64,000 nucleotides of DNA, taken from Escherichia coli. GTDB taxonomy: Bacteria; Pseudomonadota; Gammaproteobacteria; Enterobacterales; Enterobacteriaceae. The position numbers and the translations under genes were made by a program. The stretch lies in the NCBI RefSeq assembly GCF_003991155.1, contig NZ_CP031294.1; one strand, 5' to 3'. Positions 21,107-21,250 of the stretch are shown in pieces (position 1 is the first letter of the stretch; each line of letters opens with the position of its first letter). The notes beneath the pieces were generated by a model. It did not search any database, was not told where the DNA came from, and was given only the letters and a program-made list of their open reading frames with translations.

Positions 21107-21250
21107 CTTAAAAAAGTGTTGCTAGGATGTTAGCAAGCTATGGTTAAGAACGTCTGCCGTAATTGTCTATCACAGCGTTGAGCGGTCTGGTTTATGTTAG
21201 CGGAGTCTTAATCGAGTTGATTAAAAGGCCAAACCGCTCAACGCTGTGTC

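Follow-up and report, generated by a model that had tools for sequence, protein, structure and literature searches.

The inverted repeat beside the tRNA-Ser gene is genuine, far beyond chance, and constitutes the 5' domain of a conserved noncoding module that runs on the minus strand from 21248 to 21074 (about 175 nt). The window, that is, the whole stretch of 64,000 nucleotides analysed here, is part of plasmid pEC17CM6_2 (110 kb) of E. coli EC17CM6, an SSU5/pHCM2-like phage-plasmid, and has the same coordinates as the plasmid. The hairpin formed by the repeat probably serves RNA processing or stability in an ordinary way, and it is possibly a small RNA. We give about an even chance to a more specific reading: the stem-loop would be co-transcribed with the Asn-Tyr-Thr-Ser tRNA array, would serve as a processing or stability hairpin at the tRNA boundary, and would be kept on a stable trailer of about 175 nt. 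The hairpin/trailer element is undescribed so far and is best called a structured RNA in a tRNA-operon trailer, which is a kind already known. Its parts are listed in Table 1.

Table 1. Parts of the trailer module, the adjacent tRNA and the paralogous hairpins (window positions)
Feature	Position	Strand	Remarks
tRNA-Ser(UGA), last tRNA of the array	21251..21337	-	Directly upstream of the hairpin
Hairpin 5' arm, RNA sense CACAGCGUUGAGCGGUUUGG	21229..21248	-	Starts 2 nt past the CCA of tRNA-Ser
Apical region, 38 nt	21191..21228	-	Inner hairpin 21226-21219/21213-21206, then an unpaired stretch
Conserved apical motif GACUCCGC	21200..21207	-	Columns at least 90% conserved
Hairpin 3' arm CCAGACCGCUCAACGCUGUG	21171..21190	-	Repeat finder, fold, stem conservation
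Tail AUAGACAAUUACGGCAGACGUUCUUAACCAUAGC, mostly unstructured, conserved	21137..21170	-	Module alignment
Small 6-bp hairpin UUGCUA ACAUCC UAGCAA	21119..21136	-	No covariation support
Internal U6 run after the small hairpin	21110..21115	-	
Strong intrinsic terminator (GGGGCUUCGGCCCC + U6), module end	21074..21098	-	Bidirectional
Paralogous hairpin, foot ACAACGAUAAG	21478..21564	-	Starts right after tRNA-Thr
Paralogous hairpin, 20-bp stem, foot CACAACGUUGAG	22073..22194	-	About 266 nt upstream of tRNA-Asn

Inverted repeat and predicted fold

The 15-bp inverted repeat reported in the first-pass annotation is present as ACAGCGTTGAGCGGT (21172-21186) and ACCGCTCAACGCTGT (21233-21247), its left arm having been placed one base off. 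The perfect repeat in fact comprises 16 bp (21171-21186 and 21233-21248), and a repeat finder extended the arms to 20 nt with 95% complementarity and a spacing of 38 nt. Only two perfect inverted repeats of at least 14 bp within 150 nt occur in the 64-kb window, namely this one and the paralogue at 22073-22194, and each of 30 shuffles of the window gave none by the same criterion.

Structure prediction, which had been proposed as a check together with the search for covariance, gave an unbroken 20-bp helix and an inner 8-bp hairpin for the 111-nt minus-strand RNA (dG of -43.1 kcal/mol; z = -6.2). None of 200 shuffled sequences folded as stably. The identical 111 nt of the plus strand gave -50.1 kcal/mol (z = -6.35), and here too none of 200 shuffles was as stable. 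The plus-strand fold is about as good as the minus-strand fold; therefore, energy alone cannot choose the strand. The sole mismatch of the stem is a G·U pair when read on the minus strand and a C·A mismatch when read on the plus strand.

The stem of the inner hairpin differs by lineage (UUAAUC/GAUUAA, UUUUC/GAAAA or GUUCG/CGAAC). In most lineages the conserved apical motif is presented in a small loop by a 3-bp GAC/GUC mini-stem. An alternative pairing of AGCGG in the 5' arm with CCGCU in the loop was rejected, because the pHCM2-type arm reads AACGG and the loop motif is unchanged.

Position at the end of the tRNA operon

Four tRNAs were detected by ARAGORN, all on the minus strand: tRNA-Asn (21734-21808), tRNA-Tyr (21642-21728), tRNA-Thr (21562-21637) and tRNA-Ser. 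The minus strand likewise carries the genes farther to the right, from small ORFs through the DNA ligase gene. Since all the tRNAs are on this strand, the hairpin lies 3' (downstream) of tRNA-Ser. The first-pass annotation put the repeat between the terminator of a "HEPN-like" gene and tRNA-Ser; in the direction of transcription, however, the hairpin follows tRNA-Ser instead of preceding it. Pairing begins 2 nt beyond the CCA. In relatives the stem starts 1-2 nt past the CCA of the terminal tRNA, be it Ser or Asn. The arrays of these relatives show more than 20 architectures, such as Asn only, Asn-Thr-Ser, Asn-Tyr-Thr-Ser and Ser only.

The terminator at the end of the module belongs to the trailer of the tRNA operon, since it stays when the gene to its left is swapped in relatives. 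A terminator scan likewise listed a minus-strand intrinsic terminator at 21096-21077. The same terminator also stops the convergent ORF at 20164-21072 (plus strand), to which it had been assigned. Searches of Pfam, NCBIfam and PADLOC gave no significant match for this 302-aa ORF, which PGAP annotates as hypothetical; in other words, the label "HEPN-like" found no support in these resources. Any tie of the hairpin to this gene was rejected as well: the left neighbour differs in relatives, being AbiH, a YafO toxin pair, PemIK or unknowns, and the module stays. The trailer has the position typical of a 3'ETS, following the last tRNA on the same strand and ending at the intrinsic terminator of the operon.

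No promoter was detected by the scan in or beside the hairpin on either strand, nor in the tail. A promoter composed of hand-picked TTGCTA and TATGGT elements in the tail was also discarded: their spacing varies between lineages and the scan was empty. The hairpin itself does not qualify as an intrinsic terminator, having a 38-nt loop and being followed by AUAGACAAUU without a U-run, and the scan listed none at this position.

It should be mentioned that the tRNA-Ser(UGA) gene, called by both ARAGORN and PGAP, scores below the gathering cut-off of the Rfam tRNA model; its best Rfam match is the selenocysteine-tRNA model (46.6 bits against a threshold of 47). This tRNA was likewise marked as odd by the annotators of D6. 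Copies of it with approximately 90% identity are carried by rV5-like lytic phages.

Conserved trailer module

From 5' to 3', the module consists of the hairpin, a tail with AUAGAC(AAUU)ACGGCAGACGUUCUUAACCAU, a weakly supported short hairpin, a U-run, AGCGCAAAAUCC and the terminator GGGGCUUCGGCCCC followed by Us. When the whole module was folded with RNAalifold, a confident prediction was obtained for two elements only, the terminator and the long hairpin. In the tail it is the sequence that is conserved, not the structure. Lineages differ in it by indels of 1, 2 and 4 nt, which exclude that it is coding; a plus-strand ORF of 13 codons across the tail (MVKNVCRNCLSQR) was rejected for this reason.

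The homology has sharp borders, at the 5' arm and at the U-run of the terminator, and both flanks are variable. The tail was never found without the hairpin. The hairpin is kept without the tail in two loci (L002 and L024), and the paralogues of phages P7 and D6 are also tail-less. Because the hairpin persists where the tail is absent, the trailer cannot be required for its role.

The segment between the integrase gene and the terminator (approximately 18450-21072, with equivalents in loci L001 and L005-L010) is a hot spot of variable accessory genes. Depending on the plasmid, it contains a YafO toxin pair, GrxA, PhoH, AbiH or unknowns, and its right border is the conserved terminator. For annotation this calls for some caution: a terminator beside an accessory gene belongs here to the tRNA operon.

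Covariation and probable strand of the RNA

The stem was aligned for 24 distinct orthologous hairpins, in which 97.1% of the stem cells hold standard pairs. When the 3' partners were shifted by 1-3 columns as a control, pairing fell to 19-45%. Two pairs show compensatory changes: one from UA to CG via C·A intermediates, and one from AU to GC without any broken cells. Covariance in homologues, as the first-pass annotation had suggested looking for, is thus present at two pairs. Three more positions vary by U·G or G·U wobble of the minus strand alone. Twelve of the 20 pairs are invariant, which means that the greater part of the stem speaks for conservation of sequence and not of structure. Some lineages have C·A at stem position 8 on the tRNA strand, which corresponds to G·U on the other strand, and one lineage without an adjacent tRNA has two mismatches in the lower stem.

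Across the hairpin family described below, distinct wobble events of the tRNA strand outnumbered those of the opposite strand by 15 to 7. For the first 18 pairs, our own reading gave 12 against 4. This asymmetry, together with the operon context and the minus-strand terminator, makes an RNA of the tRNA strand the best reading. With moderate, not decisive, confidence, the inverted repeat seems to act as RNA of this strand.

Paralogous hairpins

The foot of the stem, CACA(A/G)CG(T/G)T(G/A)AG, occurs in five copies in the window, all within 21171-22194. The paralogous hairpins share this foot and have unrelated loops. Equivalent sites are occupied in relatives and in phages P7 and D6, and hairpins of the family begin 0-4 nt beyond the CCA of a tRNA. 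A pattern scan showed that the 22073-type hairpin is essentially confined to the same phage-plasmid contigs. The family comprises 24 distinct arm pairs, with changes on both sides in 10 of 17 pairs and 97% of cells paired; this percentage is partly built in, as the copies were gathered by a hairpin finder.

Further long hairpins are found in the noncoding part of the tRNA region, at 21478-21564, 22015-22078, 22073-22194 and 22266-22354. Three of these four share the foot (C)ACAAC with the main hairpin. The sequence of the fourth (22266-22354) differs; of its two mismatches, one (G:T) can form a wobble pair on the plus strand only.

The spacer of 224 nt between tRNA-Thr and tRNA-Ser (21338-21561) has a tRNA-like 3' end (GGCCACCA) at its end and a truncated stem foot, CAACGG, 2 nt ahead of tRNA-Ser. 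It resembles the vestige of a tRNA cassette that was lost. A perfect long-range pairing of 12 bp (21340-21351 with 21478-21489) competes with the hairpin at 21478-21564.

Distribution

A lack of conservation in relatives, which the first-pass annotation had named as counting against its reading, was clearly not observed: the module is carried by hundreds of phage-plasmids of enterobacteria. Of 5426 complete E. coli genomes, 248 contain it, on plasmids only, with no chromosomal copy, and the PGAP annotation leaves it blank. Phage-plasmids of Klebsiella, Salmonella (including pHCM2 of Typhi), Citrobacter, Enterobacter and Cronobacter also carry it, so that at least six genera are involved. With 21100-21345 (tRNA-Ser included) as the query, BLAST hit 825 plasmid records, and in 393 the match spanned 80% of the query or more. 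BLAST together with a pattern scan of IMG/VR yielded 78 loci, of which two were spurious; the module is conserved at 80-100% in 76 IMG/VR contigs.

No Rfam family accounts for the element. The scan of the whole window with Rfam 15 at gathering thresholds returned three tRNAs only. At E values up to 10, 21171-21248 matched only a plant miRNA model, and this spuriously (19.8 bits, the threshold being 211). A tRNA or tRNA-like element was rejected, because ARAGORN and Rfam place tRNAs at 21251-21808 only and none at 21171-21248. A dispersed repeat of the REP, ERIC or MITE-like type was rejected too: exact copies of the foot are limited to 21171-22194, and the 5426 E. coli genomes hold no chromosomal copy. 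In the literature on P1/tciA/ban, SSU5 phage-plasmids, pHCM2 and D6, no description of these hairpins was found.

Alternative explanations

A 20-bp helix of about two turns has the length of an RNase III substrate, and the tRNAs are separated and flanked by several paralogues that have similar stems and unrelated loops. This might mean, as the main alternative, that the hairpin is purely an RNase III site, at which the tRNA is cut from the downstream RNA, and that the trailer has no function of its own. The occurrence of the hairpin without the tail in L002, L024, P7 and D6 agrees with such a role, as does the arrangement in P7 and D6, where it separates tRNA-Ser from the coding part of the operon (tciA-ban). 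This explanation leaves the apical motif GACUCCGC and the invariant tail of about 100 nt of the present copy unexplained, and to our knowledge the maturation of tRNAs in E. coli normally does not need RNase III; on balance, we judge it rather unlikely. It should be noted that, the helix being a plausible RNase III substrate, a cut there would destroy the 5' cap proposed below. The hairpins might instead be relics of repeated duplication of tRNAs with their flanks, having no present function, and their conservation would then reflect recent divergence. The 12 invariant pairs, the modest divergence of the orthologues (80-100%) and the lower-stem mismatches of the lineage without an adjacent tRNA point in this direction. 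A relic is nevertheless improbable: the flanks have been replaced many times while the module was kept with sharp borders, compensatory changes are seen in the orthologues and in 10 of 17 pairs of the paralogues (copies from the hairpin search), and the module was retained across at least six genera.

Two further explanations would place the function in the DNA. The stem feet (CACA[A/G]CG...) might be sites of microhomology or recombination that shuffle tRNA cassettes and mark the edge of the variable accessory island, possibly with help from the tyrosine recombinase encoded at 17344-18447, 2.7 kb off. Homology breaks at the edges of the arms (from exactly 21171 in L002 and from 21228 in P7 and D6), the array is a mosaic of more than 20 architectures with hairpins at the cassette junctions, the truncated foot CCACCACAACGG lies just before tRNA-Ser, and a variable island with an integrase gene is found on the left. 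Breakpoints at the edges are equally expected, however, if selection purges recombinants that break a functional hairpin, and the wobble asymmetry points to RNA of the tRNA strand. The arms are at least 38 bp apart, unlike the core site of a tyrosine recombinase, and the integrase is generic (33.9 bits to a generic integrase domain) and not an integron integrase. We thus see little probability in this explanation. An integron attC site in particular was rejected. The shared features are imperfect inverted repeats, a conserved foot, a variable centre, a position at cassette boundaries and a tyrosine recombinase gene nearby. The differences are that the "cassettes" are here tRNA genes of one transcription unit, that no IntI-type integrase is present, and that the stems are continuous, without the unpaired spacer and extrahelical bases of attC. 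Furthermore, on either strand the 5' arm contains GTTGAGC and the 3' arm GCTCAAC; in other words, the order of the GTTRRRY and RYYYAAC boxes is reversed relative to attC. An operator for a dimeric regulator, to which the strong dyad symmetry and the highly conserved arm sequence might point, is very improbable: a spacing of 38 bp separates half-sites of 20 bp, the spacer ranges from 27 to 41 bp among lineages, no promoter is near on either strand, the mismatches are strand-asymmetric, and the position is at the end of the operon, not at its start. The first-pass annotation had offered a processing site of the tRNA precursor, a small structured RNA and a protein-binding dyad. The first two fit, given the offset of 1-2 nt from the CCA, the compensatory changes, the wobbles of the tRNA strand and the terminator-ended trailer, and probably both are partly true; the dyad is disfavoured by the spacing of its 20-bp arms and by the strand asymmetry of the mismatches.

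Proposed role of the hairpin and the trailer

In the preferred reading, a processing or stability hairpin kept on a stable trailer, the hairpin would form upon transcription, straight after the last tRNA, and its 20-bp helix would set the point at which the tRNA leaves the precursor. After excision of the tRNA, the 5' end of the trailer would sit in the helix with no more than two unpaired nucleotides. Stem-loops at the 5' end slow the 5'-end-dependent decay by RNase E; a 5' end locked in this way would be a poor substrate for it. The 3' end would be shielded in the terminator hairpin with its U-tail. Because both ends would be protected, the trailer should accumulate as an RNA of about 175 nt. 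The internal spacers would be bounded likewise by the paralogous hairpins after other tRNAs.

The CUCCGC apical loop and the invariant single-stranded tail would be candidate surfaces for an RNA target or for Hfq-type proteins. The succession of hairpin, internal U-run, terminator and U-tail resembles the pattern of Hfq-binding small RNAs, and the CUCCGC loop looks like an anti-Shine-Dalgarno sequence. On the 110-kb plasmid, complements of 10-mers were seen 20 times against 20 expected, and no extended partner for the loop motif was found. A scan of the full 110 kb that tolerated G·U pairs gave approximately 130 matches of at least 12 nt, none of them compelling as an antisense target. Among such pairings, UUUUUUAAGCGCA of the trailer (21103-21115, minus strand) can form 13 bp, including two G·U pairs, with 19636-19648 (minus strand), the start-codon region of ORF 19041-19649, which is the partner gene of the YafO toxin. 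This pairing is probably due to chance, because the plasmid holds about 130 such matches.

A broader scheme would unite the SSU5/pHCM2 and P1/P7/D6 phage-plasmids. Their hairpins would form a family of tRNA-linked RNAs freed by the tRNA-processing enzymes of the host, and the terminal trailer would be a trans-acting small RNA that works, via the CUCCGC loop and the tail, on host or phage genes or against tRNA-directed defence. It would be the bacterial equivalent of the succession of tRNA and hairpin in the herpesvirus TMERs described below. This scheme appears doubtful to us. If the trans-acting reading were true, the small RNA would be carried by approximately 5% of complete E. coli genomes and by pHCM2 of S. 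Typhi. If the trailer is stable, it would be a widespread, unannotated noncoding RNA of phage-plasmids common in clinical E. coli, Klebsiella and Salmonella Typhi, and a phage case of a tRNA-operon trailer put to use, comparable to 3'ETS-leuZ and T4 species 1 and 2. Even as a mere processing signal, the hairpin family marks the borders of a mosaic tRNA array and of a hot spot of accessory and defence genes. A processing or stability hairpin beside a phage tRNA would not surprise a specialist; what such a role leaves unexplained is the strict sequence conservation of the stem foot, the conserved apex and the tail.

Comparison with known systems

The closest functional precedent is 3'ETS-leuZ from the glyW-cysT-leuZ operon of E. 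coli. This RNA is not translated; it follows the last tRNA of the operon, ends in the Rho-independent terminator of the operon, is freed by tRNA processing and functions by base pairing with small RNAs (PMC6191717, with reference to Lalaouna et al. 2015). The likeness lies in the position of the trailer and the operon terminator. There is no sequence similarity, and the leuZ trailer is chromosomal whereas the present one is phage-borne. We also take the leuZ trailer to be much shorter and to lack a 20-bp 5' hairpin.

Among phages, the closest precedent is provided by rnaC and rnaD of T4 (species 1 and 2), small stable RNAs on the tRNA strand directly past the last tRNA. The rnaD starts 1 nt past tRNA-Arg, the last tRNA of its cluster. 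Neither rnaC nor rnaD has an Rfam family. The fold of rnaC contains a tRNA-like T-arm (GGGUUCGAAUCCC) and an acceptor-like closing stem, whereas the present RNA consists of a long hairpin, an unstructured tail and a terminator. Homology was rejected, as no sequence similarity was found and the folds differ; the likeness is positional only.

Hairpins cut by RNase III, such as those in the T7 early intercistronic regions and the rRNA stems, are several related helices of about 20 bp between the units of a polycistronic phage or stable-RNA transcript. The T7 sites have an internal loop and small apical loops. In contrast, the present stems are nearly perfect, and their apical regions are large (27-84 nt) and structured.

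The c4 antisense RNA of P1 and P7, an RNA of about 77 nt with a closing stem, is excised from a longer transcript by RNase P, and its apical loops pair with a ribosome-binding site. It comes from a related group of phage-plasmids and has a similar architecture. However, no match to the Rfam C4 family was obtained in the window, nor around the hairpin at E values up to 10; the present stem has no CCA-like 3' end, and a complementary target was not found on the 110-kb plasmid.

The TMERs of murine gammaherpesvirus 68 are stem-loops that directly follow a tRNA or tRNA-like element and are released by tRNase Z (PMC4838037). Here the likeness is one of layout only, without homology: the TMERs are eukaryotic, transcribed by RNA polymerase III and Dicer-dependent.

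Neighbouring regions of the plasmid

The noncoding leader upstream of tRNA-Asn (21809-22584, approximately 780 nt) is unusually long for an untranslated phage stretch. It shows 67-71% identity to Cronobacter, Salmonella and Citrobacter relatives, and it had no Rfam match above threshold. In one IMG/VR contig (L075; IMGVR_UViG_2841023034_000004), the tRNA before the module has the anticodon GTG (His). Every relative has GTT (Asn) in an otherwise near-identical tRNA; in other words, a single base of the anticodon was switched. The part of pEC17CM6_2 beyond the window (64001-110667; locus L103) encodes metG (methionyl-tRNA synthetase), apbC, nrdAB, thymidylate synthase and dfrA51, as well as a type I restriction-modification system and a TciA-like tellurite/colicin resistance gene.
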